From contig JBIIRM010000008.1 in the NCBI GenBank assembly GCA_044341565.1, positions 1 through 47,688 on the forward strand: a stretch of 47,688 nt of DNA. The letters are read 5' to 3'. This document shows, one piece after another, positions 696 to 47,060 of the stretch. Below the pieces are notes generated by a model. The model did no database searches and had not been told where the DNA came from. It saw only the letters and a list, made by a program, of their open reading frames with translations. The position numbers were made by a program, and so were the translations under genes. Each line of letters begins with the position of its first letter. The stretch's first letter is position 1. This DNA comes from Minisyncoccia bacterium. Lineage in GTDB: Bacteria > Patescibacteriota > Minisyncoccia > SW-4-49-11.

Positions 696-2771
696 ATGCA
701 AAAGCGGATAAAAGGATTTACATTATTAGAAATACTATTAGTAATAGCTGTAATAGGGATATTGGCAGCAATAGTATTGATAGCCATAAATCCAAATCGA
801 CAATTAGCCCAAGCAAGGAATGCAGAGAGAAGAGTAGATCTCAATACATTAAATAAAGGATTAGAACAAATATTAATCGATACGGGTTCATATCCTGCAG
901 GAATAACAGATAGTTATCAAGAAGTATGTGCGACAGGAAATAAAAGTAGTACAACTCCCTTAACAGATGCCCCGAGTGTAGATTGTGCGGGGAAACTAGA
1001 CTTAAGATCATTAATCCCAACATATATAGCAGCAATACCAAGAGACCCTCAATCTACAGGTTCTAGTACAGGATATTATGTAGCAAGAAATAGTAATAAT
1101 AATAGAATAAGTATAAAGAGTACAAATGCAGAACTGTCTCAATCGCTTGCTATTAATGATACAGGACAGAGTATAGGTAGTGGTGGTGATGTGTATTATA
1201 ATAATGTATCACTATTATTGCATATGGAAAATGGGTATACTGATTCTAGCCCCAATAATATTTCTGTTACTCCGGGTACTCCAACTACTTTTGCATATGA
1301 TCCATATTATAAATTTGGTGCAGGATCAGTTGTTTTGAATAATACAACAGATGCTTTTGTAGCAACACATCCAACAGCATTTGCAGTTACAGCAAATGAA
1401 GATTATACAATAGAATTTTGGCTAAAACCAAGTAGTACAGGAGGCTTTCAATATTTGGTATATTGTTATGGATCACTAGTAATATTTAATAACTCAGGTG
1501 GGATTCGTGTTGAACAAAATGGAGGTAATTTTGGATTAGAGGGAGGTAGTTTTGTTGTGGGACAATGGTATCATATTGTTACTACGAAATCTTCTGGTAC
1601 GATGCGATTATTTGTTGATGGGGTTTTAGTTTCAACAACGACTTCTAATACCACAGCTTCTAATCAGACAACTGCAGGTCTAAACCCTGGTCCATTTAGA
1701 TCAGCCAATGGAACTATTGTGGATGAAATTCGATTTACAAAAGGAGTAGCTCGATATACATCTAATTTTACACCTCCAACAGCACAATTTCCTGACTCTT
1801 TTTCAAGCTCACCTCCAACAGCTCCAACTGGATTAGCTGTCAATAATATAGATAATAATCAGATTACTTTAACGTGGAACTCTTCATTGAATTCAGAGAT
1901 AACCAATTATGTAATACAATATAGTAGTGATAATGGTGCAACATGGACTACTTCCACAAACCCAGTTTCAAGTTTACCTCGAAAAACAGTACAGGGATTA
2001 ATAAACGGGTCTACATATTTGTTTAGAGTAGCAGGGGTGAATGCCAATGGAACTGGTTCATATAGTGCTCCAACTAGTGCCTATACCTTACCTGAACTGG
2101 ACACATATTATGCTAATACTCCTACATTACTTCATTTTGATGGAAGTAATGGGAGTACTACATTTACGAATTCAGGGAATACAGCTATGACATTTACTCC
2201 AGCTGGGGGAGCCTCTATTAGTACTGCACAAAGTCAATTAGGTGGAGCTAGTGGACTTCTAAATGGTACAAATGCATGGATTCAAGCTCCATATAGTTCT
2301 ACTTTAGATTTTGATGGAGCCTTCACTTTTGAAGGATACTTTAGATTATCGAGTTTACCTGGTAGTATGATACTTTATTCTCGGGCGCAATCAACATGGG
2401 GTATTCCTATAGAGTCAGCTTTTTACCTCACATCTCCTACAAATGTTAATTTGTATTATGGACTCAGAGGATCCTGGATGCAACTAAGAAGTTTTACATT
2501 ACCGCAAACGCTTGTTACTAATCAATGGTATCATATTGCTATTACAAGAGATAGTAATAGTTTGTTAAGAGTATGGTTAGATGGTATCTCATCATCTAAT
2601 TTATATACTGATAATATAAATTTATCAGGAGCACATCCTCTCTATATTGGAGCATTTTTTGACGGTAGCTCATTGTTTAACGGTAATTTGGATGAATTTA
2701 GATTTACAAAAGGAGTTGCACGATATACTGCTCCATTTGTACCTCCTATAGCTCCATTTGCAAATAATTAA
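696..2771 (+). CDS. type IV pilin-like protein: prepilin N-terminal methylation motif fused to LamG-like, FN3 and LamG-like domains
   Basis: The N-terminus MQKRIKG/FTLLEILLVIAVIGILAAIVLIAI is a class III signal (G-1, F+1, E+5). Two concanavalin/LamG_3-like modules are present (LLLHMENGYTDSS...WYHIVTT...VDEIRFTKGVARYTSNFTPP and TLLHFDGSNGSTTFTNS...WYHIAITR...LDEFRFTKGVARYTAPFVPP). They flank an FN3-like module (PTAPTGLAVNN...ITLTWNSS...YVIQYSSDNGATWTT...STYLFRVAGVNANGTGSYS). Confidence 0.85.
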   Translation: MQKRIKGFTLLEILLVIAVIGILAAIVLIAINPNRQLAQARNAERRVDLNTLNKGLEQILIDTGSYPAGITDSYQEVCATGNKSSTTPLTDAPSVDCAGKLDLRSLIPTYIAAIPRDPQSTGSSTGYYVARNSNNNRISIKSTNAELSQSLAINDTGQSIGSGGDVYYNNVSLLLHMENGYTDSSPNNISVTPGTPTTFAYDPYYKFGAGSVVLNNTTDAFVATHPTAFAVTANEDYTIEFWLKPSSTGGFQYLVYCYGSLVIFNNSGGIRVEQNGGNFGLEGGSFVVGQWYHIVTTKSSGTMRLFVDGVLVSTTTSNTTASNQTTAGLNPGPFRSANGTIVDEIRFTKGVARYTSNFTPPTAQFPDSFSSSPPTAPTGLAVNNIDNNQITLTWNSSLNSEITNYVIQYSSDNGATWTTSTNPVSSLPRKTVQGLINGSTYLFRVAGVNANGTGSYSAPTSAYTLPELDTYYANTPTLLHFDGSNGSTTFTNSGNTAMTFTPAGGASISTAQSQLGGASGLLNGTNAWIQAPYSSTLDFDGAFTFEGYFRLSSLPGSMILYSRAQSTWGIPIESAFYLTSPTNVNLYYGLRGSWMQLRSFTLPQTLVTNQWYHIAITRDSNSLLRVWLDGISSSNLYTDNINLSGAHPLYIGAFFDGSSLFNGNLDEFRFTKGVARYTAPFVPPIAPFANN

Positions 2772-10085: not shown

Positions 10086-10416
10086 TATCCAAGGAGAATG
10101 GTAATCGCGCATATCCATATATATGGTGAGTGAGGAAAGTCTGGACACCTATTACTTTGTAATAAATGATAGTGGGTAATACCCACCATTGAGCTTGCTC
10201 AATCGGGATAGTATCGCAGAAACAAGACATTTGAGTATATCTCATCTAAGGTGAAAAGAGATAAACCCTATCAGGTGCAAGGCCGTGCTTTTCTGTATTG
10301 AAAAGAGTGCCGCCAAGAATATGCTGGTAACAGTATATCAAGATAAATGATTACCTATGTATATTTGCTTGCAAGTATGCATAACAGAATCCAGCTTATA
10401 TTCTTCTTGGATAATT
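10086..10416 (+). ncRNA. rnpB: RNase P RNA (bacterial type A-like)
   Basis: Conserved CR-I-like GAGGAAAGTCTGGAC at 10132-10146 and CR-V-like ACAGAATCCAGCTTAT at 10384-10399. Internal GGGTAATACCCACC and AGATAAATGATTACC resemble universal rnpB elements. The P1 helix forms between TATCCAAGGAGAAT (10086-10099) and ATTCTTCTTGGATA (10400-10413) with one G-U pair. A TATAAT at 10074-10079 puts a transcription start near 10086. Confidence 0.85.
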
Positions 10417-10435
10417 CTATAAACAATTACTATAT

Positions 10436-11851
10436 ATGAATAGATTCGAGTTATTATTTAGTGCTATACGAGTACCCATAGATTTTTTTGTCATTCTTTT
10501 GGCAGGAATATTATCTTATCAATTACGTATATCTGAATTTGCAATAGAGGTTCGTCCCATACCATATGATTTCAGTAGTGACTGGTATAATGGATTTGTT
10601 ATTGTATTTGCATTAGTAACCGTAATTATCCTTGCAATATCAGGAATGTATAGTGTCAGGAAAACTCCAGGAATTGTGAGCGAATTTTATCGTATTTTGA
10701 GTTCTGTATCAATCACAATTTTAATTATTATTTTATATTATTTCTTTTATTCTCGTGATTTATTCTCATCAAGATTTTTGATTATTTCCCTTTGGGCATT
10801 AGCTATTATCTTATTATTAATTGGAAGATTATTAGTACATAGCATACAGGATGCTATTGTAAGGCATTATAAATGGGGAATACATAGAGTTGTTATTATT
10901 ACAGGAGAAGATATAGCTGGTAAATTAGTACTTGATGCACTTAATACTAAAGACGGTATAGGATATCAAATAGTAGAAACACAAAAAGTATTGAATCTGA
11001 AAGGCTTAAGGCATTTAGCATTGACTAAACAAATTGACGAAGTAATTTTAGCAGATACCAAATTACCACAAGATCAATTAATTACAGTAAATTATCTGTG
11101 TGAGGAATATAAAATTGATTTTCAATATATCCCCAATATATTCGATATATATACACAGGTAGAGGTAAAAAATCTCTCAGGAGTATTATTATTTAGAGTA
11201 AAGCGTACAACCTTAGAAGGATGGGGAAGTATCTGGAAGAGATTATTCGATATTATTGTTGCTACATTAGCTATTATTATCCTCTCCCCAATTTATCTTA
11301 TTACCATTATTGCAATAAAACTTGATTCACCAGGACCAATTCTCTATAAAAGTCGTAGAGTGGGAGTAGCAAAAAAACCATTTGATGTATACAAATTCCG
11401 GAGTATGTATGAGGAATTATGTACGGATGAAGATAATGCAGAATCTATTGCCTTAGAGCAGAAAATATTAGCAGAAAAAGGTATCAAAAAAGGTCCCGTC
11501 AATAAAATTAAAGATGACCCTCGTGTTACTAAATTAGGGAAATTTATTCGTAAAACCAGTATAGATGAATTACCGCAATTCTTTAATGTACTCGTAGGAA
11601 GTATGAGTCTTGTAGGTCCTCGCCCTCATCAACCACGAGAAGTAGATAAATATAAACAACATCATAAAAAAGTACTCACAATCAAACCTGGAATAACCGG
11701 TATGGCGCAAGTTAATGGCCGCTCAGACTTGAGTTTTGAAGAAGAAGTATTATATGATACCTTTTATATAGAGAATTGGAGTATATGGCTGGATATTATT
11801 ATACTACTCAAAACGCCTTGGGCAATCATAGCTCCCCGCAAAGCTGATTAA
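10436..11851 (+). CDS. polyprenyl-phosphate glycosyl-1-phosphate transferase (WbaP/bacterial sugar transferase family)
   Basis: N-terminal TM bundle and a C-terminal sugar-transferase domain: [42 protein letters not shown]...YKFRSM...[22 protein letters not shown]...[11 protein letters not shown]. Confidence 0.9.
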
Positions 11852-11911
11852 AAAATTGAGAATTATATATCAATATGATATAATAAAAATAATGTAAAAT
11901 AAATAGATATT

Positions 11912-14900
11912 ATGGGAGAATCATTTAGACAAATACCCGAAGATTATAGAGAGCCTAATGAACATGATAGAGGTTTAGAAAATGGTCAAGGACTTATAGA
12001 ATTTGTTTCTGCTTCAGTCAAAAAAAGGAATAGATTTAATAAGGAATTAGGGCCAGTCATTGGTATTACGGACACAGATAATTTGGCTAAATTAAGACGT
12101 AAACTTCAAGAAGAATTGACAATCCCACAGTTAAATGGTAATACATTAGATTTAGAAACAGTAAATTTTTTACGTAATCGTTATGGTTTTGATGCTTTAG
12201 GACAAGAAGAATATGAGGTACAGCAAAGCCAGACACAGGAAGTTGAAAATAGTGTTGAACAGTTAGCTCCAGAAGAAAAAATTAGTCTTAACTCCCTAAA
12301 TTCAGAACAAACTCAAATAGTAGAAGAGGAAACAGGAATAACTCCTGAAATACCAGCTGAGCAAGAATTGGTATCAGAAGTATTGTCACCCATACAGGAC
12401 CAACAAGATCAAATTACCCCTATTGCGGAAGAATCAATTCTTCAAAATCCTGAGCAAGTTGCTCCAAAAGAAGAATTGACTTCTGAAAATCCAGATGTAC
12501 AGGGAATGTTGGCTGAGGTCACAGCTATTGTAGAGGCGGAACAACAGGAGGAAGAAAAATTAGATGTACCTGAAGGAGGAGAAAATAAAGGAGAAGAGAC
12601 TGAAAGATTAACACAAGAAGCTCGTGAAACTATTGCTATATATCAAAAATTTGGACAAGAGCATCCTATTTTTACAAGAGATCAGGCAACGCAAGAGCGA
12701 TATCGTCAATTAGAAGCTGAAGCTTGGGGAGCTCAGAATAGACTTGCTCATATGAATGGGGGAGAAATTTTTGCTTTACCACAAAAAAGAGATATAGAAT
12801 TATCACATCCAGAAGCAAAAGACACAAAAGACTATCTGGAATCATTAGAATATGGATTTGATGAGAAGGGTAATATTATTACCATTAAACATCATAATAA
12901 AAATATAGAATTGAATCGACCTTATAGTGTGGCAAATTTGATAGATAAAGCTCGACCAGCACAAATACTTACTGATATTAATTTAGATAATATCGATACA
13001 GATCTACATCGTATAGGATATGTATTACCGGGTTTGAATCCCCAAACCCCAGACTTTATTGTGAGTACACTCAGCAAAGATGAATTTATACAAGGAGTGA
13101 TTGTTGATGATATTGTTCCCGAACAAGTAGTAACACCTGAAGCTAATCCAGAGATACAAGCTTCTAGTGTTTTATTTCCGCCCGAGCCAACGGCAGAACA
13201 ATTACCAATCACCCCAGTACCAGAAGTTAATCTTGAAGTAGAAAACTCTACGCTTGAAGTTGTGATAAGTCCAGAAATAGAACAAGCACCAATAAATCCA
13301 GATTTGGGAAGTTTATATTATCAAGAAATTCAATTATGGAATAATATTCAAGCATTAAAAGAGCGAAGAGAGCAAAAAGAAGCTAAAGAAGAAGATATTG
13401 ATACACAAATTGAAAAAGCCGAGTCAGATTATCAAAGTTTTATAAACACATTATGGGGAAGTGAATTGGGAAGACGTTTTGTCCAATTTCTTGATTTGCG
13501 TACAGAGAGTGCATATACTGAAGAGCAAAATAATAAATATGGTAGAGATAAAGGTTTATTAGAGAAAATTCGTGATAAATTCTCAAGAGAAGATGTATCA
13601 GATACAGAAGAATTAAGTCCTAAAGATCAGGAACTTAAGGCTAGAAATGAATATAATCAAGCTTTACAAGAATTAATTAGAACTGAATCAGCTATTGGAT
13701 TAGAATCAGAAATACAAACATTATTTGCAACTGAAGTACAGCGTTTGCGAGATGAAAGAATAGTACAATCTCAGGAATTACAAGAATGGGATCAAACAGG
13801 ACTTGAAAAAATAGCTAATTCAACTAAAGAAAAACTATTCAACTGGTATATTAAACATAAAAATACTATTGGTAAAGTTAATCTTGCATTATTTGCAACA
13901 AGTACAACACTAGCATTAACTGGAGCTGGACTACCTGTAGCAGGAGCATTAGAGGCTGTAAGGCGTACAATAGCATATCCTATGGCTTTTGCTTCTGGAG
14001 TATCAAGTAGAGAACTTATAAGGTCAAAATTTGAAGATGGGGATGTTAATATACTTAATATTATTAAATATAAAGGGGGAATTACTAAACTAGTAGGGGA
14101 GTCTCTACAAGGAAATTATATTCAGGAAGCTCAAGATACTGAACTTACTGCAAAACTTAGTACCCTGGAGTCTTATTATCGGCTTAATGGAGGTAAATTT
14201 ACTGAATTGTCTCAGCAAAAAGCTTATGAGTTGATATTAACTGAATTAGGGCAGAGAGTAGAAAATCAAAAAATTGATGATGTTAAACCAGATATAGAGC
14301 AACCTGAAGAGCAAGAGACTACAGCTAACACAGGATTAGATTATAATATTAATTTAAAAGATAATCCTATAGAACAAAATCCAAACTATGTTAATAGCTT
14401 ATTAGAGACAGTATCAGAAAAGCGTATTACAGAATTACAAAGACTACAAAGGAATAGAACTATTGCAAATGTAGCAGGAACAGTTGTAGCGGGATCACTA
14501 TTAGTCAATTTAGCGGCACATGCTATTAAACTTGATAAACCAGATATTGCAGATACTCCTGATAATCTGTCTGTTGGGACAAGTCCAGAGACTGCTACTC
14601 CAAATCCTACAGAAATATCTCCAGTTAAACCTGATATTCCATCTTCAGAAGGAGCTGAATCTATGAATGAGGTTGCAAAAGAAGCTACTCAGCAATTATC
14701 AACAGAACAATTACAAGATATCTCTGAATTAAGTAAGGGAGAGACTTTATGGGGAGAAATAGCTAAAAAATTAGGAGCGAATGCCAGTGAAGCCCAAATT
14801 CAACAAGGAGTAGAAACATATATGCAATCAACACAAGGTTCAGAAACTATATTTAATTTAGCAAATCAAACTGAGGGGGGAAGAGCTTTATTATCTCAAT

Positions 14901-15859
14901 GGGGGATTGATAATGCAGGAGAACTATCACAAGTATCAAAAACAGATTTATATGAATTATCTCGTCATCTAGGAGTAGGACAATTAAAGGGGTTAGATAC
15001 ATTAGATATTACTAATCTCCCTCCTCTTGATGAGGTATCAACTCCTACAGGATTAACTCCTCCTGAAAGTCCTAGTTCTGGAGTAACTCCTCCTGGACCT
15101 GGAGCCGAGTCTATTCCTCCAACTGATACTAATACTTTTGCTCGAGAAGTATCTCATACATTGCGTTTAGAGAATACCTCTCTCGATGATAATCAAGTTA
15201 AAGATATTTTGGAAGCATATCATTCCACTGAGCAGGGACGTAATTCTATGTATGAATTAATATTATCCGCTCCTGAAGGAGATACCTATTTATCTAATTT
15301 AGGTATTAAGACTATAGAAGATTTTTCAAATCTATCAGAGGATCAATTATATGAGCTTTCCCAGAGTATTGATTTAAACAAGCTTGAAGGATTTAATTTC
15401 AATAATATTATCTTATCTCGATTTGAAGATGCTCCAAACTCCATTCCATTGATAAAAGGAACCGGAGCTTTATCCCAAGTAAACCAGTATATTGATTTGT
15501 ATGCGGGAGCATTGCCATATAATTCTACTTTGGGACAAGAAGTATTAACTACATATTTGAATACCCCAGAAGGAAAAGATTGGCTATATGATGCTATTGT
15601 AAATAATCCAGATACATTAAATGGAAATCAAGGTATTCAAATTGCAAAAGAATATTTCCGACAAAAGGGTATACAACAGGGAACAGATATTGATTGGACA
15701 CTCTTAAGTGGAGATAAAAAAAATCCCACCTCAATTTTCTGGAGAGAGACCTCTTTGACAGGAGGAAGAAAAATCCCACCATTATCTACTCTTTTGAAAC
15801 CAGGTACAATGCCAGGTATCAAGAAAGCACTTGAGCAAGTATTAACATTAAAACAATAA
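11912..15859 (+). CDS. giant (1315 aa) hypothetical membrane protein: acidic Glu/Gln-rich N-terminal half, central TM segments, C-terminal triple repeat of about 90 aa
   Basis: Uninterrupted 3.9-kb ORF. TM-like stretches are VNLALFATSTTLALTGAGLPVAGAL and IANVAGTVVAGSLLVNLAAHAI. Repeats sit at about 14741-15010, 15131-15400 and 15520-15680 (shared pattern Q[IV]...Y..[ST].QG....[FY].L....EG...LS..GI....S..S...LYELS). I recognise no family. Confidence 0.8.
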   Translation: MGESFRQIPEDYREPNEHDRGLENGQGLIEFVSASVKKRNRFNKELGPVIGITDTDNLAKLRRKLQEELTIPQLNGNTLDLETVNFLRNRYGFDALGQEEYEVQQSQTQEVENSVEQLAPEEKISLNSLNSEQTQIVEEETGITPEIPAEQELVSEVLSPIQDQQDQITPIAEESILQNPEQVAPKEELTSENPDVQGMLAEVTAIVEAEQQEEEKLDVPEGGENKGEETERLTQEARETIAIYQKFGQEHPIFTRDQATQERYRQLEAEAWGAQNRLAHMNGGEIFALPQKRDIELSHPEAKDTKDYLESLEYGFDEKGNIITIKHHNKNIELNRPYSVANLIDKARPAQILTDINLDNIDTDLHRIGYVLPGLNPQTPDFIVSTLSKDEFIQGVIVDDIVPEQVVTPEANPEIQASSVLFPPEPTAEQLPITPVPEVNLEVENSTLEVVISPEIEQAPINPDLGSLYYQEIQLWNNIQALKERREQKEAKEEDIDTQIEKAESDYQSFINTLWGSELGRRFVQFLDLRTESAYTEEQNNKYGRDKGLLEKIRDKFSREDVSDTEELSPKDQELKARNEYNQALQELIRTESAIGLESEIQTLFATEVQRLRDERIVQSQELQEWDQTGLEKIANSTKEKLFNWYIKHKNTIGKVNLALFATSTTLALTGAGLPVAGALEAVRRTIAYPMAFASGVSSRELIRSKFEDGDVNILNIIKYKGGITKLVGESLQGNYIQEAQDTELTAKLSTLESYYRLNGGKFTELSQQKAYELILTELGQRVENQKIDDVKPDIEQPEEQETTANTGLDYNINLKDNPIEQNPNYVNSLLETVSEKRITELQRLQRNRTIANVAGTVVAGSLLVNLAAHAIKLDKPDIADTPDNLSVGTSPETATPNPTEISPVKPDIPSSEGAESMNEVAKEATQQLSTEQLQDISELSKGETLWGEIAKKLGANASEAQIQQGVETYMQSTQGSETIFNLANQTEGGRALLSQWGIDNAGELSQVSKTDLYELSRHLGVGQLKGLDTLDITNLPPLDEVSTPTGLTPPESPSSGVTPPGPGAESIPPTDTNTFAREVSHTLRLENTSLDDNQVKDILEAYHSTEQGRNSMYELILSAPEGDTYLSNLGIKTIEDFSNLSEDQLYELSQSIDLNKLEGFNFNNIILSRFEDAPNSIPLIKGTGALSQVNQYIDLYAGALPYNSTLGQEVLTTYLNTPEGKDWLYDAIVNNPDTLNGNQGIQIAKEYFRQKGIQQGTDIDWTLLSGDKKNPTSIFWRETSLTGGRKIPPLSTLLKPGTMPGIKKALEQVLTLKQ

Positions 15860-15860
15860 T

Positions 15861-16277
15861 ATGGCAAATCCAGAAGACAATATTATCGCATTATTAGGAC
15901 TAGAAGATTTACCTGTTGAGAATAGAGCTCAATTAGTGGATGAATTAACCCAAATTCTTGAAGTTCGTGTACTCAGTGCCGCTTATGATACATTGAGTGA
16001 AGATCAGGCAAAACATTTAGATACACTACTTAATGAGAATAATCCAGAAGTAGTCACTACCTATATTCAAGAAAATGTTCCAACTCTTAGTGATATATTT
16101 GCCAATCAAATAGAAGTATTAAAAGAGGAATTAGTACAACATAAAGAGAAAATCACCAAGAATTTGACACAAGAATTAGAACTTGAGCATAATCACGATG
16201 AAGATGATGGACATACTCATGAACATGGAGAAGATCATATTCACACAGAATCAGGTGACGAAAATCCTACAGAATAA
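15861..16277 (+). CDS. small acidic protein with a His-rich C-terminal tail
   Basis: It starts 1 nt after the giant gene's stop, so translational coupling is likely. The tail is ELEHNHDEDDGHTHEHGEDHIHTESGDENPTE (about 16182-16277), and the rest looks helical and acidic. Confidence 0.7.
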   Translation: MANPEDNIIALLGLEDLPVENRAQLVDELTQILEVRVLSAAYDTLSEDQAKHLDTLLNENNPEVVTTYIQENVPTLSDIFANQIEVLKEELVQHKEKITKNLTQELELEHNHDEDDGHTHEHGEDHIHTESGDENPTE

Positions 16278-17384
16278 TTATCCAATTACTGGTATAGAGA
16301 ATCTAGGTTCGGGGCTTGATTTACGAGATTTTTTGGCTTCAAATGTATTGAGATAAGCATAGTGATATTTATGTACTTGTCCTTCAATAGATAATATATC
16401 TTGAATTATTGGCATATATTCTGAGGCTATGCGCTTGAGAATAGGATACATATCCTCAATAATATTGAGCCCGGTTACAATAGAGCTATAATTATAAGGA
16501 GTAAAGAATATTCCATTTGCTTTTATTAATTCTTGATTATATTCTCCTTTTGAAGCAAGAACAGGAATCCCAGCAATTAGAGCTAGGGATAGAGGATATT
16601 TATCTTCATTATTCGGAGAAATTTCTACAAATATATGAGCATTTTGAATCAGAGACTGTTCGGTATTCCCGCTTAATTCTCCTACAAAAAGCATAGTATC
16701 ATTTTGATAAGACTCACGTATAGATGGCTTTACTTTACCCAGTACAATAACAGGAAGATTCAGATTATGTTTGCGATATGCCTTTAACCATAATTCTAAA
16801 CTTTCAGAATCTCTATATTGCCCATTATGAACCAGAATATATTCTTGAGGATATAAATCTTTGAAATTATTTTGAGAATTTACAATAGAAGCAGTATCAA
16901 TTCCTGTTGGTATACTATATACTTTTGATTTAAAAGAAGCGTTTAGGAGAGTTTGTAATTCTGGATTATCTATAATCAAAGAATCAGAAAACTGAGCAGA
17001 TATATAAGAGAGTAGCATATAGCGTCGTCTATTCTTTTTGCTATTGACAAAAGTATATTGATGATAATCAAAAATAACCCTTACTTGAGGCATTTGTAAT
17101 GATACCCAAAAAGCCACCCAAGCATATTCTAGCGATCTAATATGTACAATATCAAGATTTTCTATTTTCCGGAGCTCACGAATAATGGACTTAACTTTAG
17201 GTTGACTGGGAATAATATGAATATTCTTATATTCCGTTAATTGGGTGTAATTAGGGTCTGAGAGCACATATACAGAATGTCCTCGTCTTGCCAATTGAGT
17301 CGCTACAATTTCACAATTATACTCATTTCTATCTCGAGTATTTTGATAAGGAATTCCTCTGGTACCAACAAATGCTATGACCAT
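16278..17384 (-). CDS. glycosyltransferase (GT-B fold, GT4-like)
   Basis: The N-terminus MVIAFVGTRGIPYQN...ATQLARRGHSVYVL and the C-terminal half (LFVGELSG...EISPNNEDKYPLSLALIAGIPVLAS) fit GT-B glycosyltransferases. The track start at 17408 is a TTG, and ATG at 17384 is preferred. Confidence 0.75.
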   Translation of the reverse strand: MVIAFVGTRGIPYQNTRDRNEYNCEIVATQLARRGHSVYVLSDPNYTQLTEYKNIHIIPSQPKVKSIIRELRKIENLDIVHIRSLEYAWVAFWVSLQMPQVRVIFDYHQYTFVNSKKNRRRYMLLSYISAQFSDSLIIDNPELQTLLNASFKSKVYSIPTGIDTASIVNSQNNFKDLYPQEYILVHNGQYRDSESLELWLKAYRKHNLNLPVIVLGKVKPSIRESYQNDTMLFVGELSGNTEQSLIQNAHIFVEISPNNEDKYPLSLALIAGIPVLASKGEYNQELIKANGIFFTPYNYSSIVTGLNIIEDMYPILKRIASEYMPIIQDILSIEGQVHKYHYAYLNTFEAKKSRKSSPEPRFSIPVIG

Positions 17385-17453
17385 ATGGGATATTAGTTCT
17401 ACAGACAAAAACTATAGCATAAAATAGCAGTTTTGTCAATTTCTGATATTATT

Positions 17454-17956
17454 TTTCCACCCCTTTCCCTGCTACCCCTCAATTTATCTCCCGTAGGGAG
17501 AGAGGGGAATTAGCTAAGTCCACACCCGTCGACTTTGTCGACACCCTCGCCGGCGAGGCCTGCCTGCGGTAGGCAGGGACAGTTTTATTGTCCTCCCTTG
17601 GGGGAGCTTTGGTTCCTCCTATATTTGTTTAGGAGGGGGTGCCCGTAATAGACTGAAGGTCTGGGAAAGGGGTCGGGAAAACAGAAGTTTTCCCGTGGAG
17701 GAAGGTTGGGAAACCGTGAGGTTTCACAGGAGCAAATCCCATTTGCGACGGGGGAGGGAGGATAGAGTTTAAGTTTGTATTTTATCCACCCCGTCCAGCA
17801 AAGCTGTCCACCCCTCAAGAGGGGAATATATACAATGTACTGTCCTAAAAATTCCCCTCATGGGTTGTGAGTAGATAGGAGTCAGTATATAACAAAGTGC
17901 TTTGTCCGAAAAATTCCCCTCTTGAGGGGTGCCGTCGCTAGACGGCGGGGTGGAAA
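17454..17956 (+). repeat. G+C-rich mosaic stem-loop cassette, copy A (the largest), bounded by a 10-nt inverted repeat
   Basis: TTTCCACCCC (17454-17463) and GGGGTGGAAA (17947-17956). At least 11 short perfect GC-rich hairpins are present. The backbone is shared with 38577-38778, 42131-42206 and 47131-47305. Confidence 0.85.
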
Positions 17957-30061: not shown

Positions 30062-31408
30062 ATGGCAGGGAATAATTCTCTTGATTCATTTACCAAAAAT
30101 CGCAACGTAATTATTATTGCTGGTGTCGCTATATTAGCTATTGTTATATTGATGCTTGGTAATGCGCTTGGATTCAAAATTGGAGGTGAGAAAAAAGTAC
30201 AAAAAGCAAATTTGGTAGTATGGGGAGTCTGGGATGAAAGTGAGACAATGACGAAATTGGGAAGTGATTTTCGTAAAATATATCCTAATGTAAGTATAGA
30301 ATATCGTAAATTCAAGCCACAAGATTATGAGACAGAACTTATTAATGCTTTAGCTGAGGGACGAGGTCCAGATATATTGGCAATGGAGAGAACTTGGCTT
30401 GGTAAACATAAGAATAAGTTAGCCCCAATGCCAGAAGAAATTATGACACTCAAAGAGTATCAAGATACTTTTGTAGATGTGGTTAATCAAGATTTTATTG
30501 ATGAGGGTAAAATATATGGATTCTCTCTATACACCGATACTTTAGCATTATTATATAACAAAGATGCTTTTAATGATGCTGGAATTGCAAATCCACCAGT
30601 AACTTGGGAAGAATTACAAAGTATAGTACCCAAATTAACTAAAATAGATCAATTTGGTGAGATTAAACAGGCGGGAGTTGCATTAGGTACAGGAGATAAT
30701 ATAAATCGTTCACCAGATGTTTTGATGGCATTAATGTTACAGTCTGGAGCTCAATTTACTGACCCTAAAGATACTAGTAGAATTACTTTTTCTCAAAGTA
30801 AAAATGTCAATGGACAAAATATAAATCCTGCTCAATTATCTTTAGCTTATTATACCGATTTTGCTAATCCTCGAAAAGGAGTATATACCTGGAATTCAAC
30901 CTTAAATAATTCAATAGATGCTTTTTATGAAAGAGAAGTTGCTATGATATTTGGATATTCATATCAGGTAGAAGCAATTAAAGCAAAAGCCCCAAGACTT
31001 AATTTTGCAGTAGCTCCTCTCCCTCAGGTATCTACAGATTCTGGCCTTGCTAATTTTGCAAATTATTGGGGATATGGAGTAAGTGGTCAATCTAAATACC
31101 CAAAAGAAGCCTTTGCATTCCTCAAATCAGCCACTGAAAAGGAAAATGCTCAAGAGTATTTCTTGAAAACCAAGCGCCCAACAGCCAGAAGAGATTTAGT
31201 AGATACACAATCACAAGACATTGATTATGGAGTATTTGTAAAACAAATATTACAAGCTAAAACCTGGAGACAACCCGATAATAATTCAGTAGATAAAATA
31301 TTTATCAATGCTATTAATGGAGTAAATTCAGGATTACTTGACTATAGTAAAGCTATTTCGCAAGCTCAAACAGAAATACAGACATTAGCTGATAATGTGA
31401 AAAAATGA
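30062..31408 (+). CDS. ABC-transporter-type extracellular solute-binding protein (family 1, sugar-like), N-terminally membrane-anchored
   Basis: TM anchor VIIIAGVAILAIVILML, then VVWGVWDESE...YPNVSIEYRKFKPQDYETELINALAEGRGPDILAM...YNKDAF, typical of SBP_bac_1. No permease or ATPase gene is adjacent. Confidence 0.8.
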   Translation: MAGNNSLDSFTKNRNVIIIAGVAILAIVILMLGNALGFKIGGEKKVQKANLVVWGVWDESETMTKLGSDFRKIYPNVSIEYRKFKPQDYETELINALAEGRGPDILAMERTWLGKHKNKLAPMPEEIMTLKEYQDTFVDVVNQDFIDEGKIYGFSLYTDTLALLYNKDAFNDAGIANPPVTWEELQSIVPKLTKIDQFGEIKQAGVALGTGDNINRSPDVLMALMLQSGAQFTDPKDTSRITFSQSKNVNGQNINPAQLSLAYYTDFANPRKGVYTWNSTLNNSIDAFYEREVAMIFGYSYQVEAIKAKAPRLNFAVAPLPQVSTDSGLANFANYWGYGVSGQSKYPKEAFAFLKSATEKENAQEYFLKTKRPTARRDLVDTQSQDIDYGVFVKQILQAKTWRQPDNNSVDKIFINAINGVNSGLLDYSKAISQAQTEIQTLADNVKK

Positions 31409-32730
31409 AATATATAAAGTTCAGTATAGTTTTTGGTATAATATTCTTAGTAGTTTCATTTTTTAGTATTAACTATACTAATGCACAGAGTGCAGATGGA
31501 GCTTGTAGTGCAGGGGCAACATCATTAGAGCAAAACTGTACTTTTCAAAATGGAAGCTCTCGTTTAAATGGAAAATGCCAGGTTAAAGATAAAAATAATC
31601 CAGGTTTAGGATTAACTTGTCGTACTAGCTTAGGATCATCCTGCTCAGGTGATACTTGTCAAAATGGATTAGCCTGTATTAATCAGGTTTGTTCCAGTCC
31701 AAGAGGGGCTAAAACTCAAGGTCAATCTTGTTCAGGGAATGGAAATGAATGTATTGCAGGTCTTGAATGTAGAAATTTTATATGTACAAAAGAAGCTGCC
31801 ATTACTGGTGGAGGGTCTGGGCAAACTGGAGGTGGTCAAGTCGGTACCCCTGGAGGCTCAACAGGGGCAGAAACAGGCCTTGTTAAATGTGGAGTGAGTC
31901 GAGATTGTACTATTTGTGATATATTTATCTTAATTCGAGATATCTTTAATTTTGCTTTAGGGCTACTAGCCTCACTCGCGGTATTAAGTGTTGTTATTGG
32001 TGGGGTCTATGTGTTGACTTCAGCAGGTAATCCTGGAGCGGTAAGTACAGGATATGGCATTATTACCAATGCAGTAATTGGACTATTACTCGTAATGGCA
32101 AGCTTTCTCTTATTTAGTTTCCTTCTTGTGGGGCTTGGATTTCAAGAACAAAATTTCTCAGCTGTACTTACTTTTCAACCAGGTAAAGTATTCGAGGTAA
32201 AATGTGATAATGCTAGTACTTTTAATGATAATGGATCAAATGGAGGAGGGTCTGCTGTACTGGGTAATGGTGGGAGTAACTCATCAACTATAAGTTGTGC
32301 GAGTTTAAATGATTCGGTTAAGGCGGATTTAAATAATGCTAGTTCTCAGACGGGTGTTCCTTCTGAACTATTGGCTGGAATTATGCAAAGAGAATGTCCT
32401 GCAGCCTTTAATAATGCTAATGCTTGTCCAAATGAAAATGGCTCTGGAGCAGCTGGAGCAGGTCAATTTTTACAAAGTAGCTGGAATGAGCTGGGATGTA
32501 GTGGAAGTAGAACGAATCGAAGAGATGCCCTTGTTTGTATGGGGAAACATTTAAAACGGTATAATAAATGTTCTAGTCAATGTAATGGATATTCTAATTT
32601 TTCATCCAGAGCTTGTTCTGATTGTGTGGCAGGAGATTATTGTGGTGCATGTTCAGGTTCATCAGCTTGTGGAGGTAATTATTGTGATGGGGTGTGGAGT
32701 AACTATCAAAAATTTAAAACATGTAAATAA
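31405..32730 (+). CDS. secreted Cys-rich domain, T4SS-pilin-like TM hairpin and C-terminal Cys-rich lytic-transglycosylase-like domain (fusion)
   Basis: Signal peptide MKYIKFSIVFGIIFLVVSFFSINYTNA. Cys-rich repeats follow the pattern C.G..C..GL.C.N..C. The pilin core is FNFALGLLASLAVLSVVIGGVYVLTSAGNPGAVSTGYGIITNAVIGLLLVMASFLLF (about 31897-32155). The SLT-like motifs are ELLAGIMQRECP...GAAGAGQFLQSSW (about 32302-32730). The ATG overlaps the SBP stop (ATGA). Confidence 0.7.
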   Translation: MKYIKFSIVFGIIFLVVSFFSINYTNAQSADGACSAGATSLEQNCTFQNGSSRLNGKCQVKDKNNPGLGLTCRTSLGSSCSGDTCQNGLACINQVCSSPRGAKTQGQSCSGNGNECIAGLECRNFICTKEAAITGGGSGQTGGGQVGTPGGSTGAETGLVKCGVSRDCTICDIFILIRDIFNFALGLLASLAVLSVVIGGVYVLTSAGNPGAVSTGYGIITNAVIGLLLVMASFLLFSFLLVGLGFQEQNFSAVLTFQPGKVFEVKCDNASTFNDNGSNGGGSAVLGNGGSNSSTISCASLNDSVKADLNNASSQTGVPSELLAGIMQRECPAAFNNANACPNENGSGAAGAGQFLQSSWNELGCSGSRTNRRDALVCMGKHLKRYNKCSSQCNGYSNFSSRACSDCVAGDYCGACSGSSACGGNYCDGVWSNYQKFKTCK

Positions 32731-32734
32731 TAAT

Positions 32735-33841
32735 ATGAATAAAATCTTCAGTCTATTTTTACTAATAGCATCTTTCTATTCTATTTCTCCAGTATATGCA
32801 GATACTAGTATATACTCAAGTTTCTTATATCCAAGTTTTGCTGTAAATAATGAAATTTTATATTTTGATCAATATGCAGGAGCTATTGTGAAACAAAATG
32901 TTATTACTGGTGAGAAGTCAGAGATATTTGATTTAATACCTTCTGCTACTAACTTAGTATCAATTTCTCCTGAACAATCTAAAATATTACTTTATCCTCC
33001 TAATATATCATTTCCAAAATATCAAGCACCATTTTTTGATAGTTCAAGAAAATCTCCCGATAATCAATGGTGGGTATATGATTTTAATACAACAAATAAA
33101 ATACTACTAGATGATAAAATTAATTTAGTTGGCTGGTATTCTGATAATGAAATTATATATGTATTTAATAATAAAGATATCACAGTTGCCCCAACCAATG
33201 ACCTATCTAAATTTAATATTCTATACTCTAATATACCATCTAATGTGGATATTAATAAACAAATTATAGCAAATGATAACCATCAAATAATTCCATTAGT
33301 TGATGGTTATCTTGTGGGAAATAAGAAAAACTTTGTATATCAAAAAAGTACTAATTATCAAATTTCAGCCAATCCAAAATTGAATTATTTTTTGGAATAT
33401 AATAATAGTCAGATAAAAGTTTTTGATTGGGATAGTAAGCAAGTAGGTAGTATTATTAATATCAGTAACAGGAAAGCTTTGTTACTGAATAATGATACTA
33501 TAGCTATATTGGCTACAAATGGTAATTTGATACAATATAATTTACAAGGGCAGGAGCAATCAAATGTATCATTAAATCCAATAGTTACTGATATATATTC
33601 GGTTGATCAATCTGGAAATGAACTATTAATTAATCAAAATAATCAAATACGTACTTATAATTTATTAAAAAAAGAGCAGGGAACCATCCTATTATCCACC
33701 AATACTCCTACTCCTAATACTGACACAAATTCAGAGACAGAACAATCCAACACATTAGGGAATATTGCTATTTTAATAGGAGGAATAGTATTCCTTGCTG
33801 GGGGACTGGGGCTATTTATTTGGAAATTAAGAAAAAGATGA
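32735..33841 (+). CDS. secreted beta-propeller-like protein with a C-terminal TM anchor
   Basis: The true start ATG 32735 gives the signal peptide MNKIFSLFLLIASFYSISPVYA. The body is Asn/Ile-rich and beta-strand-like with PD40/TolB-like strings (ISPEQSKILLY, WWVYDFNT). The C-terminal anchor is IAILIGGIVFLAGGLGLFIWKLRKR. Confidence 0.6.
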   Translation: MNKIFSLFLLIASFYSISPVYADTSIYSSFLYPSFAVNNEILYFDQYAGAIVKQNVITGEKSEIFDLIPSATNLVSISPEQSKILLYPPNISFPKYQAPFFDSSRKSPDNQWWVYDFNTTNKILLDDKINLVGWYSDNEIIYVFNNKDITVAPTNDLSKFNILYSNIPSNVDINKQIIANDNHQIIPLVDGYLVGNKKNFVYQKSTNYQISANPKLNYFLEYNNSQIKVFDWDSKQVGSIINISNRKALLLNNDTIAILATNGNLIQYNLQGQEQSNVSLNPIVTDIYSVDQSGNELLINQNNQIRTYNLLKKEQGTILLSTNTPTPNTDTNSETEQSNTLGNIAILIGGIVFLAGGLGLFIWKLRKR

Positions 33842-33871
33842 TATAATTAAAAATAATTAAATACAGATACT

Positions 33872-34711
33872 ATGAAATTAATCATATCTACAGCATTTGG
33901 AATTGTCTTTGCACTAGTATTCTTTAGTAATTCTAATATAACACTTGCTCAATGTGGAAGTGGTCCAAGCTGTACAGGGAATTTTGTTTGTGTGAACGCA
34001 GATGGTACTCCTAAATGTTTGCTAAATCAGGTTAGTAATAATGGTTTATGTGAGGGCGACTCTTCTGTGAAATGTTCAGCAAATCAAGCTTGTATTCAAA
34101 ATAATGCAACAGAAATTGTATGTGCCCCTTTAGCGGGATCATCAGCTAATACAAATTTACCAGGTTCTGGAAGTACAACAACTTGTCCAACCTGTAAATC
34201 TGGTGAAACATGTATTAAGAGTGCAGCAGGACCACTCGTATGTAGATCCGCCGCTACAAATTGTACTCCTGCTTGTACAACAGGTAAGGTGTGTGTTAAA
34301 GCAACGCCAACAGCAACTACTGGAACTTGTGTAGATAATGCGCCTACTCAAGCTGCTGGAGGAGCTGGTGGTAATGGTGCTGGAGGGAATGGATCTTCAG
34401 GAGGAAGTGGTGGTGGCTTATTAGAAGGTCTCAATGCTTTTGGTAGTGCAGATTCTGGACTTAATACAGAGGGAACTCTCATTGGGTTTATTTCTAATAT
34501 TATTCGTTGGATATTAGGACTTCTTGGAACTGTGTTCTTTGTAATCATAGTTTTACAAGGGTATCTTTATATGACATCTTCAGGAGATGCGAGTAAAACA
34601 GCAGCAGCTACGGGGGCTATTACTAATGCAGTAATAGGACTACTGATTATTATGGGAGCTTTCCTCATTACTAATTTTGTGACAAGTGGTTTGATTGCCG
34701 CTGGGTCTTAA
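33872..34711 (+). CDS. T4SS-pilin-like protein, paralogue 1, with a long Cys-rich N-terminal extension and Gly-rich linker
   Basis: Signal peptide MKLIISTAFGIVFALVFFSNSNITLA, then about 20 Cys in C..G..C-type repeats and the linker AGGAGGNGAGGNGSSGGSGGG. The pilin core is IIRWILGLLGTVFFVIIVLQGYLYMTSSGDASKTAAATGAITNAVIGLLIIMGAFLITNF. Confidence 0.8.
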   Translation: MKLIISTAFGIVFALVFFSNSNITLAQCGSGPSCTGNFVCVNADGTPKCLLNQVSNNGLCEGDSSVKCSANQACIQNNATEIVCAPLAGSSANTNLPGSGSTTTCPTCKSGETCIKSAAGPLVCRSAATNCTPACTTGKVCVKATPTATTGTCVDNAPTQAAGGAGGNGAGGNGSSGGSGGGLLEGLNAFGSADSGLNTEGTLIGFISNIIRWILGLLGTVFFVIIVLQGYLYMTSSGDASKTAAATGAITNAVIGLLIIMGAFLITNFVTSGLIAAGS

Positions 34712-34721
34712 TATCTTATAT

Positions 34722-35069
34722 ATGATAGAAGCATTTATATCCAATTTCATCATAGTAACAGCTAAAGCCCAGGAGACATCGCCTCCTCCTATATTAGCTA
34801 TACCTACAGGAACAGGAGTGGGGGAGCAAGGAGATCTGTTTACTTTTGTGTCAGCTATTGTGCAATGGGGATTGGGATTAATAGGGATAGTATTATTTGT
34901 ACTTATACTCTTTTCTGGATTCCAATATGCAACAGCAGGGGGCGACTCTAAAAAAACTGAAGAAGCTATTAGTAGAATTACTTCTGCAGTAATCGGAGTA
35001 TTCATTGTAGGGGTGGCTTTTATACTATCCAATGCAGTATTAGGATTTGTTTTTAGTCTAGGATCTTAA
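34722..35069 (+). CDS. T4SS-pilin-like protein (TrbC/VirB2-type two-TM hairpin), paralogue 2
   Basis: The core is IVQWGLGLIGIVLFVLILFSGFQYATAGGDSKKTEEAISRITSAVIGVFIVGVAFILSNAVLGFVF. The start is trimmed to ATG 34722, after the upstream stop at 34711. Confidence 0.8.
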   Translation: MIEAFISNFIIVTAKAQETSPPPILAIPTGTGVGEQGDLFTFVSAIVQWGLGLIGIVLFVLILFSGFQYATAGGDSKKTEEAISRITSAVIGVFIVGVAFILSNAVLGFVFSLGS

Positions 35070-35097
35070 TATACTGACTTATCCACAATAGTATCAC

Positions 35098-35126
35098 TTG
35101 CATAGTAATATAAGATATGATAGTAT
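35098..35126 (+). promoter_or_regulatory. candidate promoter for pilin paralogue 3
   Basis: TTGCAT (35098-35103), a 17-nt spacer, then TAGTAT (35121-35126) in the 100-bp A+T-rich spacer. Confidence 0.25.
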
Positions 35127-35169
35127 AAAAACATAGAACATATTATTCAATAATTATTAAGATATTCTT

Positions 35170-35553
35170 ATGAATACTTCCCAGATAAAATCAATAGCAA
35201 CAAGAGCATTATTACCTGTATTAGTATTAGCTCCTACTTTAGCTGGAGCTGCAACTCCCATAAAAGATACTAGAGTCATAGGTGAAATACCTCAAGTAGC
35301 TGGTACTAATCAATCTACTGACCTTGTGGCTACAGTACAAGTGGTTATTCAATGGGCATTAGGATTTATCGGAATTGTAATATTCATTATTTTCTTATTT
35401 GCAGGATTTGAATATGCAACAGCAGGAGGAGATGAAGGAAAAGCAAAAACTGCACAGTCTCGAATGATTAACGCGGTAATTGGACTTATTATTATATTCT
35501 TTGCCTTTGTAGCTTCAAATGCAATATTGTCATTCGTATTCCCAGGAAATTAA
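35170..35553 (+). CDS. T4SS-pilin-like protein, paralogue 3
   Basis: Signal-like N-terminus ...LVLAPTLAGAATP. The core is VIQWALGFIGIVIFIIFLFAGFEYATAGGDEGKAKTAQSRMINAVIGLIIIFFAFVASNAILSFVFP. Confidence 0.85.
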   Translation: MNTSQIKSIATRALLPVLVLAPTLAGAATPIKDTRVIGEIPQVAGTNQSTDLVATVQVVIQWALGFIGIVIFIIFLFAGFEYATAGGDEGKAKTAQSRMINAVIGLIIIFFAFVASNAILSFVFPGN

Positions 35554-35573
35554 TCAAATTGATAGATACTATG

Positions 35574-35610
35574 AAACAATAAAAAGGGATTATATCCCTT
35601 TTTATTGTTT
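35574..35610 (+). terminator. rho-independent terminator-like hairpin after pilin paralogue 3
   Basis: AAACAATAAAAAGGGAT-tat-ATCCCTTTTTATTGTTT is a 17-bp perfect stem whose 3' arm carries a T-run. Confidence 0.65.
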
Positions 35611-35697
35611 AGAGAATACATATTCAAATAGTATAATCTTCTTGTCAGATAATAGAATACTTGATATACTTGTAATATATAGAATAGTAAAATAGAT

Positions 35698-36114
35698 ATG
35701 AGAGTCTTATTGATTATAATAGCTTTATTGATGGGGGTATTTGTATTAAGTTCTAATATATCTCTAGCTCAAAGAGCCCCTGATGCCACTCTCCCTGGTC
35801 CAGGAACAATCCCAATTAATACCGGAATAGCTGAGGGACCAAGCTTGATAGAAACAGTGTCTATTATTATAAGGTGGATATTAGGATTTATTGGAATTAT
35901 AATATTTATTATATTCCTATATGCAGGATTTGAATATGCAACAGCAGGAGGGGATGAGAAGCAGGCTGAATCAGCTCAAAAAAGAATGGTAAATGCAATC
36001 ATAGGACTGATTATTATATTCTTTGCATTTGTATTGTCGAATGCAGTATTAAGCTTTGTATTTCCTCCAGACGATACAGTAGATGATCCTAATATGCCAT
36101 TAAATGTAAATTAG
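35698..36114 (+). CDS. T4SS-pilin-like protein, paralogue 4
   Basis: Signal peptide MRVLLIIIALLMGVFVLSSNISLA. The core is IIRWILGFIGIIIFIIFLYAGFEYATAGGDEKQAESAQKRMVNAIIGLIIIFFAFVLSNAVLSFVFP. Confidence 0.85.
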   Translation: MRVLLIIIALLMGVFVLSSNISLAQRAPDATLPGPGTIPINTGIAEGPSLIETVSIIIRWILGFIGIIIFIIFLYAGFEYATAGGDEKQAESAQKRMVNAIIGLIIIFFAFVLSNAVLSFVFPPDDTVDDPNMPLNVN

Positions 36115-36115
36115 T

Positions 36116-46974: not shown

Positions 46975-47060
46975 GGAGAGTTCGCATAGTTGGTCTAGTG
47001 CGCACGCTTGGAAAGCGTGTATACCGCAAGGTATCAAGAGTTCGAATCTCTTACTCTCCG
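46975..47060 (+). tRNA. tRNA-Ser (anticodon GGA), class II with a long variable arm
   Basis: Acceptor GGAGAGT/ACTCTCC plus discriminator G. D-arm GCA/TGC with a GG loop. Anticodon stem CACGC/GCGTG with loop TTGGAAA. Variable arm ATACC-gcaa-GGTAT. T-arm AAGAG-TTCGAAT-CTCTT. No CCA is encoded. Confidence 0.93.

Follow-up and report, generated by a model that had tools for sequence, protein, structure and literature searches.

A stretch of 47,688 nt from a Minisyncoccia bacterium (contig JBIIRM010000008.1; the whole stretch is referred to below as the window) carries at positions 11912 to 16277 a conserved two-gene unit of an uncultured freshwater Patescibacterium. Its first gene, which we call X, encodes a large orphan protein, and its second encodes a small protein of family DUF5663. 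Comparison of aligned sequences shows X to be a recombination mosaic, with cassette-like exchange among deeply diverged alleles of otherwise near-identical genomes, which diverges far faster than every neighboring gene. It is this evolutionary pattern, a reshuffled X beside a conserved DUF5663, that makes the pair a candidate module of the envelope or the host interface. No described family includes X, and DUF5663, although catalogued, is uncharacterized; their association, together with the mosaic hypervariability of X, is new as far as the searchable literature shows.

The X-DUF5663 gene pair

Most Patescibacteria are uncultured, and a sizable fraction of their genes lacks an assigned function; the products of both genes described here are named "hypothetical protein" in public sources. 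The unit and the site that precedes it are as follows.

11856..11884, plus strand: strong promoter-like site TTGAGA-17-TG-TATAAT, 11 of 12 matches with an extended -10, in the 60-nt gap before X; a consensus match only
11912..15859, plus strand: gene X, encoding an orphan modular protein of 1,315 amino acids (aa), pI 4.5, without cysteine
15861..16277, plus strand: DUF5663 (PF18908) gene, encoding a protein of 138 aa, pI 4.3

Relatives of X are few. A word-indexed search found 7, and an exhaustive hidden Markov model (HMM) search with aa 200 to 1315 as the query found 32 among 1.84 billion representatives, a count that includes several fragments and one evidently spurious eukaryotic repeat protein (P0110). 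A word-indexed search with the C-terminal alignment of X recovered only three fragments of the family. Where sources could be identified they were Patescibacteria, and the related metagenome-assembled genomes are labelled Paceibacteria, Parcubacteria, or Minisyncoccia. An earlier note on this DNA, made from its letters and open reading frames (ORFs), had called X lineage-specific, and these small numbers bear it out.

Wherever a close locus includes upstream DNA, DUF5663 is directly preceded by an X orthologue. The same is true of four remote members (P0103, P0097, P0105, and P0100; 474 to 1,737 aa) that are detectable via single modules only: DUF5663 follows in all four, and a phosphoglycosyl transferase gene precedes three of them. 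The genes downstream of the remote pairs differ (MnmA, HAD hydrolase/GH1, RNase J), and because the pair is kept despite these differences, its association goes beyond simple synteny. X orthologues are all intact ORFs, of 474 to 1,889 aa. Co-occurrence of the two genes, X and then DUF5663, thus holds in all related loci examined, and this conservation excludes a strain-specific accident.

The smaller protein scores 30.3 bits against PF18908 (gathering cut-off, 23.7), with residues 9 to 90 on model positions 2 to 83 of 84, and PF18908 is a precomputed domain in all 73 of its homologue clusters. The core (aa 1 to 105) is very strongly conserved among aligned orthologues, and from its sequence the protein is probably mostly helical. 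This core matches the Pfam family, but the copy in the window adds a clade-specific tail rich in His, Asp, and Glu (aa 106 to 138, nt 16176 to 16274), in which 7 His and 13 Asp/Glu fall within the last 33 residues. The C terminus reads ...HNHDEDDGHTHEHGEDHIHTESGDENPTE; within the tail we confirmed the string HNHDEDDGHTHEHGEDHIHTE on which the earlier note had remarked, with 8 more residues beyond it. The His-rich tail is present in the window, P0009, P0010, P0014, and P0028 and absent from the other 15 aligned orthologues, which have unrelated acidic tails instead. As a family feature, the divalent-metal-binding tail proposed in the earlier note is therefore abandoned, since the His cluster is limited to the closest clade. 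DUF5663 found no match among solved structures, and no paper in the searchable literature mentions DUF5663 or PF18908. We also considered an Sdh5/SdhE identity, which some JGI names echo ("succinate dehydrogenase flavin-adding protein"); the match (E = 0.0067) is weak and falls below the cut-off, and we treat it as unreliable.

The promoter-like site suggests, as a matter of sequence, that X and DUF5663 may have a promoter of their own. The junction between the two genes reads TAA-T-ATG, and the layout of two ORFs 1 nt apart is as the earlier note described it. A gap of this size indicates co-transcription, which is likely, and allows termination-reinitiation without demonstrating coupling; translational coupling is only possible. 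The earlier note had stated coupling as a fact, and this does not stand, because the gap varies (1 to 18 nt in close loci, and up to 37 nt when all orthologous loci are taken together), a Shine-Dalgarno-like motif lies upstream of only 1 of the 25 checked genes in the window, and short intergenic gaps are common throughout the genome. A-rich leaders such as ACAATAAT-ATG recur in the window.

Mosaic divergence of X

Protein identity between the window and the closest genome (L004) is 99% for the phosphoglycosyl transferase upstream of X, 96% for RecJ, 95% for a downstream family 4 glycosyltransferase (GT4), 96% for fmt, 98% for def, and 91% for DUF5663; for X it is 44%. Blastn gives DNA identities to L004 of 93% up to position 12266 and 91% from position 15470; between these positions there are only patches of 69 to 80% identity or no match. 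The parts of X to which we refer below come from an alignment of eight full-length relatives and from two AlphaFold (AF2) models, for which we give the predicted local distance difference test (pLDDT) score.

12267..15470, plus strand: hypervariable mosaic core of X (aa ~119 to 1186), from blastn against L004
12587..13111, plus strand: N-domain (aa 226 to 400), modeled as a helical hairpin and a small alpha/beta domain (AF2 pLDDT, 70 to 86); a conserved block with at least two allelic classes
13634..14551, plus strand: central helical module (aa 575 to 880), containing both hydrophobic segments, each rich in Gly/Ala; common to DUF5663-adjacent large proteins of other Patescibacteria
13877..13951, plus strand: hydrophobic segment 1 (aa 656 to 680), Gly/Ala-rich, carrying a conserved TG.G[IL]P motif and flanked on each side by basic residues
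14462..14527, plus strand: hydrophobic segment 2 (aa 851 to 872), preceded by a conserved basic cluster (RLQRNR)
14534..14656, plus strand: Pro/Thr/Ser-rich linker 1 (aa ~875 to 915), from sequence; AF2 pLDDT below 50
14723..15016, plus strand: helical module R1 (aa 938 to 1035), with a six-helix pattern in the AF2 model
15131..15415, plus strand: helical module R2 (aa 1074 to 1168), dispensable, being missing in P0001 and L004
15416..15856, plus strand: module R3 and a conserved C-terminal extension (aa 1169 to 1315), the best-conserved part of the X family

Segment identity matrices for eight genomes are incongruent, and each segment clusters the genomes differently. At the N terminus the window groups with L004, L002, and L001; in the N-domain it groups with L002, L005, and L013, while L014 and L001 form a second cluster, and identity within these allelic classes is 77 to 89%, compared with 33 to 49% between them. 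The central module groups L004 with L002 and L014, and L005 with L001 and L013, and the C terminus yields three clusters (window, L004, and L002; L005, L014, and L008; L001 and L013). Within the single pair L001 and L002, identity runs from 94% at the N terminus to 35% in the N-domain, 55% in the central module, 92% in R1, and 54% at the C terminus. The extreme N and C termini are the parts of X kept between close genomes, and the conserved ends of the gene could serve as recombination arms. That all alleles are long intact ORFs argues against decay. The genome region is otherwise streamlined and near-clonal, and X stands out in it as one of the genes that diversify fastest and are shuffled by recombination. 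Hypervariable islands usually mark a cell's interface with phages or hosts, and the pair is for this reason a candidate for studies of host range, phage receptors, or envelope assembly.

Two further possibilities were considered and rejected. Diversification by a diversity-generating retroelement finds no reverse transcriptase domain among the larger ORFs of the window (Pfam) and no DNA repeats, and the variation, which extends over 3.2 kb, is not confined to one short variable region. For a phage, viral, or defense origin, X had no match in PHROGs or PADLOC, DUF5663 had weak matches only (E ~0.01), and tblastn and IMG/VR scans were negative. In the literature on hypervariable surface proteins, the match that we found concerned the host and not the epibiont.

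Architecture of X and proposed placement of the two proteins

From its N terminus, X comprises a variable acidic region, the N-domain, a variable linker, the central module, a Pro/Thr/Ser linker, R1, a further linker, R2, and R3. Residues ~400 to 560 are acidic, Pro-rich, and highly variable, with many indels, and AF2 predicts much of the protein as long helices. The earlier description of the N-terminal ~650 aa as coiled or disordered is only partly right, because aa ~226 to 400 are conserved and modeled as a folded domain and other parts are now defined by the alignment and the models; the Pro/Thr/Ser linker it mentioned is found, and a second lies at aa ~1036 to 1073. X had no significant match in Pfam, NCBIfam, PHROGs, PADLOC, or PDB sequences, and library scans returned noise only (TUG-UBL1, E = 0.035; SLATT_2, E = 0.44; AmcB, E = 0.023). 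When the alignments of X and of DUF5663 were searched as sequence profiles against the PDB, no match had an E below 0.05, and fold searches of the two AlphaFold models of X gave no meaningful match. The earlier note could place neither protein in a known family; this is still so for X, while the small protein is DUF5663.

The three C-terminal modules are all helical in the models, R2 and R3 at a pLDDT of 85 to 93. R1 and R2 are 29% identical over 68 aa (BLASTP), their profiles from 22 to 25 orthologues align over 93 columns (hhalign probability, 99.3%; E = 4e-20), and an R1 HMM matches R2 at an E of 1.2e-14; by these sequence comparisons the two are clearly homologous. R3 aligns with R1 and R2 at lower scores (hhalign probability, 88 to 94%; E = 1e-6 to 1e-7; R3 HMM against R2, E = 4e-4) and is a probable third, diverged copy with a C-terminal extension. 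Of the triple repeat reported in the earlier note, then, the R1-R2 relationship and the strings DLYELSRHL and QLYELSQSI are confirmed, and the third copy is probable only. Homology of the repeats to a characterized domain, which would have told against the earlier note, was not found in our Pfam, NCBIfam, PDB sequence, and fold searches. There is no DNA-level repeat in or near X, and the duplication is therefore ancient. A 338-aa fragment from the representative search (P0108) joins an R1-type module to many DxDGDGxxD repeats, which judging from the motif resemble Ca-binding repeats of extracellular proteins; the R1-type module is therefore also part of a very different architecture, one that is probably extracellular, and we count this in favor of the membrane-anchored reading given below.

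A wider view of DUF5663 comes from its distant genes (30 to 36% identity), whose neighbors include large, charged proteins other than X; two more gene orders of this kind were seen. A metagenome scan for distant DUF5663 loci returned only 6. In the first (type B), the order is an FtsQ-like gene, a PMT_2 glycosyltransferase, an LTD protein, a 691- to 781-aa protein, DUF5663, a 130-aa acidic protein, and a VirD4-like ATPase; in the second (type C), it is RmlB, RmlD-RmlA, a PEGA protein, DUF5663, a 1,170- to 1,565-aa protein, MurA, and CtpA. X and these large proteins have only the central module in common, and there they are collinear (hhalign probability, 89 to 96%; E = 1e-7 to 1e-8, against 0.08 to 0.17 in reversed-sequence controls); an HMM also matches the L026 protein directly (E = 3.7e-4). 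What they share comprises a coiled-coil lead-in, a hydrophobic stretch rich in Gly, RR, G.GSYEL/SGVSSREL, and YE.R..L.G.K/LEAYYRLNGGKF, and the N-domain and R modules show no relation to the type B and C proteins (probability below 1%). By these profile matches the central module recurs beside DUF5663 in other Patescibacterial lineages. Three locus arrangements, independent of one another, in this way tie DUF5663 to one particular class of large partner protein. All three locus types have envelope-related neighbors: the phosphoglycosyl transferase at X; PMT_2, FtsQ-like, and LTD genes in type B; and RmlB, RmlD-RmlA, PEGA, MurA, and CtpA in type C. In another Patescibacterial lineage, at loci L015 (8293 to 11132), L017 (8294 to 11270), and L018 (2635 to 3266), DUF5663 is followed by an acidic protein of 130 to 145 aa and then by an ATPase of 816 to 833 aa; the ATPase of this lineage is membrane-anchored and VirD4/TraG-like (PF02534), and a ClpB-like AAA+ protein lies further downstream.

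A Kyte-Doolittle (KD) scan of X finds only two hydrophobic windows, aa 658 to 676 (KD, 1.43) and aa 854 to 872 (KD, 1.72), in agreement with the positions 13870 to 13990 and 14460 to 14525 given in the earlier note. Segment 1 is preceded by a K-rich stretch and followed by RR, and AF2 models it, at low confidence, as helix-break-helix. The segments lie 170 aa apart with basic clusters on the loop side of both, and both are conserved with their basic flanks in all long X members. The label of membrane protein, used in the earlier note, is at most putative for X: two segments exist and are kept in long members, but they are weakly hydrophobic and are missing in the 474- and 598-aa members. One further member, P0106, is ordered as N-domain, RWRR, one hydrophobic helix, Pro/Ser linker, and R1. 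On the strength of the positive-inside rule, the linkers that follow segment 2, and the P0106 architecture, the favored prediction is that segment 1 is re-entrant, segment 2 spans the membrane, and the C terminus lies outside.

The best-supported reading, which we put forward tentatively and as a possibility rather than a probability, makes X a protein of the envelope or surface, anchored in the membrane and subject to diversifying selection, and DUF5663 its conserved cytoplasmic partner. X would be anchored in the cytoplasmic membrane, which segment 2 would cross with its basic N-flank inside. Segment 1, flanked on each side by basic residues and interrupted at a conserved Gly-Pro, would form a re-entrant helix-break-helix that dips into the inner leaflet. 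On this model the N-domain and central module would be cytoplasmic, and R1 to R3, tethered by the linkers, would be displayed in the cell envelope, where they might contact a wall glycopolymer and/or a host or phage; wall glycopolymer is proposed because the phosphoglycosyl transferase is so persistent a neighbor. Diversifying selection at this interface, together with cassette exchange by homologous recombination via the conserved 5' and 3' ends, would keep X hypervariable. DUF5663, made from the same transcript, could act as a cytoplasmic chaperone or adaptor that binds X at some conserved region, of which the central hydrophobic module is the likeliest.

Several observations count against this placement. 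X has no signal peptide, its N terminus is hydrophilic (MGESFRQIPEDYRE...), and no window exceeds a KD of 1.4 before aa 658. Hydrophobicity is marginal across members (KD maxima, 1.4 to 1.8; summed Hessa values, +2.5 to +4.4 kcal/mol). Pfam finds no known wall-binding domain in X and no LPXTG or choline-binding anchor domain, and X does not class as a Sec-exported or sortase-anchored protein. The 474- and 598-aa members (P0097 and P0100) consist of N-domain, R1, and R3, without central module or hydrophobic segment, and both ends must therefore share one compartment there. Variability runs over the whole length of X, and so also over the regions assigned to the cytoplasm; covariation of DUF5663 with X is not seen; and low constraint on disordered or coiled regions could account for part of the fast divergence. 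The assignment of function is drawn wholly from gene neighborhood and composition, and binding of DUF5663 to X is putative.

The short members and the missing signal peptide are what one would expect if X were a cytoplasmic or membrane-peripheral scaffold, lying inside the cell (with two spans, both termini in, and an outer loop of ~170 aa, or with no span) and organizing an envelope-biogenesis or division machine with DUF5663 near the phosphoglycosyl transferase. Such a protein might be likened loosely to a polysaccharide co-polymerase or a coiled-coil division scaffold, and its fast evolution would reflect weak constraint plus recombination. Because the segments number two, the termini end up together on one side, and P0097 and P0100 indicate that both ends can work in one compartment; the N-terminal half is as variable as the rest; the neighbors are envelope or division genes; and the predicted long helices would suit the role. 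The basic clusters on the loop side of both segments, however, conflict with an outside loop under the positive-inside rule, and P0106 has a single hydrophobic helix between its N-domain and R1. No Wzz/PCP or division protein family matched at an E of 1 or less, and a housekeeping scaffold would not usually show cassette mosaicism with such deep allelic classes. We regard this arrangement as somewhat unlikely. If X is only such a loosely constrained scaffold, the annotation is still corrected and the speculation on metal binding and a glycan-accessory role is removed.

The type B order, in which a large central-module protein, DUF5663, and a 130-aa acidic protein lead to a VirD4/TraG-like ATPase (PF02534), raises another prospect: X as a secreted or translocated effector whose Gly-rich hydrophobic helices insert into a target (host) membrane, with DUF5663 as an acidic cytoplasmic chaperone or adaptor. 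Export would rely on a type IV-like machine of the Patescibacteria or on an orphan coupling ATPase of the VirD4 type. VirB2-like pilin arrays and orphan VirD4 homologues are widespread in the candidate phyla radiation (CPR) (bioRxiv 10.1101/2025.01.22.634366), and the window has six T4SS_pilin genes. DUF5663 is small, acidic, and by its sequence probably mostly helical, and it lies beside its putative client; whole-length hypervariability fits an arms race, and the conserved extreme termini of X also speak for this view. It is nonetheless quite improbable, as no coupling ATPase lies beside X in its own locus type, where the persistent neighbor is the phosphoglycosyl transferase and not a secretion gene; the ATPase link comes from three syntenic loci only; and neither protein resembles a known effector, translocator, or chaperone family or fold.

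A more far-reaching view can also be put forward. DUF5663 and a large central-module protein might form a Patescibacteria-wide, lineage-specific two-component envelope/secretion module, of which the large partner here would be a cassette-shuffled, hypervariable host or phage interface, possibly exported via DUF5663 and an orphan VirD4-type ATPase. This view is speculative and somewhat unlikely; if true, it would give the first functional handle on DUF5663 and also on one factor that sets phage or epibiont-host specificity among the uncultured CPR bacteria of fresh water.

Flanking genes and comparison with known systems

The pair is flanked by a phosphoglycosyl transferase gene and a GT4 gene.

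10436..11851, plus strand: polyprenyl glycosylphosphotransferase (EPS_sugtrans type), the conserved upstream neighbor of X
16278..17384, minus strand: GT4-family glycosyltransferase, convergent, its stop abutting the DUF5663 stop; kept only in close relatives

The upstream product matches Bac_transf (PF02397, E = 1.1e-66, Pfam) and TIGR03025 (391.6 bits; NCBIfam cut-off, 295.55). Its score against the WbaP-specific model TIGR03022 is 290.1 bits, under the cut-off of 403, and it is therefore an EPS-type phosphoglycosyl transferase and not demonstrably WbaP; the "WbaP-type" label of the earlier note is right as to the enzyme class and otherwise describes architecture only. This gene lies upstream of X in L001 to L005, L008, L010, L012 to L014, and L020 to L022. 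The downstream product matches PF13439 (Glyco_transf_4; E = 3e-10; 40.7 bits, cut-off 28.5), and with PF00534 (Glycos_transf_1) slightly under its cut-off (25.1 bits against 26.4) we count it as a GT4 member. It is not found downstream of the pair in L020 to L023. Its ORF could start at TTG 17408 or ATG 17384, and the ATG is favored because a strong promoter-like site has a -10 element ending at 17411.

These flanking genes had led the earlier note to place the pair in a glycan-synthesis neighborhood, with X as a membrane accessory of glycan synthesis and a translationally coupled partner binding divalent metal through its His-rich tail. Both flanking genes are real, the gap is 1 nt, and the tail is as rich in His and acidic residues as that reading would want. 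The surroundings are otherwise housekeeping, however, and the genes of the window include no flippase, polymerase, or ligase. At distant loci the phosphoglycosyl transferase is kept in three of four and the GT4 link is lost, most orthologues lack the His-rich tail, and the variable gap and general lack of Shine-Dalgarno sites speak against coupling. We consider this explanation very unlikely.

Other features of the window are given here as observations in their own right. A bacterial class A RNase P RNA lies at 10089 to 10414 (plus strand; 140 bits, gathering score 100), between recJ and the phosphoglycosyl transferase gene. Between the GT4 gene and fmt, positions 17440 to 17760 form a GC-rich intergenic stretch (~42%, against a background of 33%) in which some ten perfect hairpins, each short and GC-rich, are packed; z-scores for RNA folding are -6.6 (minus strand) and -4.8 (plus strand), and there is no Rfam match. 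Positions ~17558 to 17757 have no counterpart in the closest genome, L004, and 17440 to 17757 none in L002; the stretch may be an inserted palindromic element or a structured RNA of no Rfam family. The T4SS_pilin (PF18895) genes form a six-gene array at 31405 to 36556 (plus strand). A 691-aa protein encoded at 696 to 2771 (plus strand) combines an N-terminal type IV pilin methylation motif with Laminin_G_3 and fn3 and is a putative large pilin-like adhesin. An RND/MMPL-type transporter (ACR_tran, E = 7e-93) is encoded at 43446 to 46163 (minus strand), and one tRNA gene lies at 46975 to 47060 (plus strand).

Among known systems, the Wzz, Wzc, and CpsC co-polymerases (the last with CpsD) share with X two hydrophobic segments around a helical region, a phosphoglycosyl transferase alongside, and a small partner gene downstream. 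X differs from them in its 650-aa N-terminal and 440-aa C-terminal regions, in a partner that is not a P-loop kinase, and in short members without the segments; Wzz/PCP membership was rejected for want of any Wzz (PF02706) or GNVR match at an E of 1 or less in Pfam and NCBIfam. The pairs formed by type III secretion system (T3SS) class I/II chaperones, type VI secretion system Eag chaperones, and LXG-Lap proteins similarly set a small acidic protein, as DUF5663 is, and one that by its sequence is probably helical, beside a large client with hydrophobic helices, and one DUF5663 locus type has a VirD4-like ATPase. Unlike those pairs, DUF5663 and X have no homology to such chaperones or substrates and no secretion ATPase at the X locus, and the likeness is one of adjacency, size, and charge. 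In likeness to SLH or LysM-type wall-binding repeats, X has three tandem C-terminal modules, and R1 begins with a LysM-like string (GETLWGEIAKKLG). A LysM identity for R1 was rejected, as no Pfam LysM match was found at an E of 1 or less and the AF2 model is all-helical as opposed to beta-alpha-alpha-beta.

The last comparison is with pneumococcal PspA and PspC and the streptococcal M proteins. Unlike these, X has internal hydrophobic segments instead of a signal peptide, LPXTG motif, or choline-binding repeat, it has no sequence similarity to them, and its surface location is only inferred. Like them, it has long stretches of helix, linkers rich in proline, and repeated modules at the C terminus, and it shows extreme allelic divergence and cassette-like recombination within otherwise conserved genomes. 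The evolutionary mode of X resembles that of known mosaic surface proteins.

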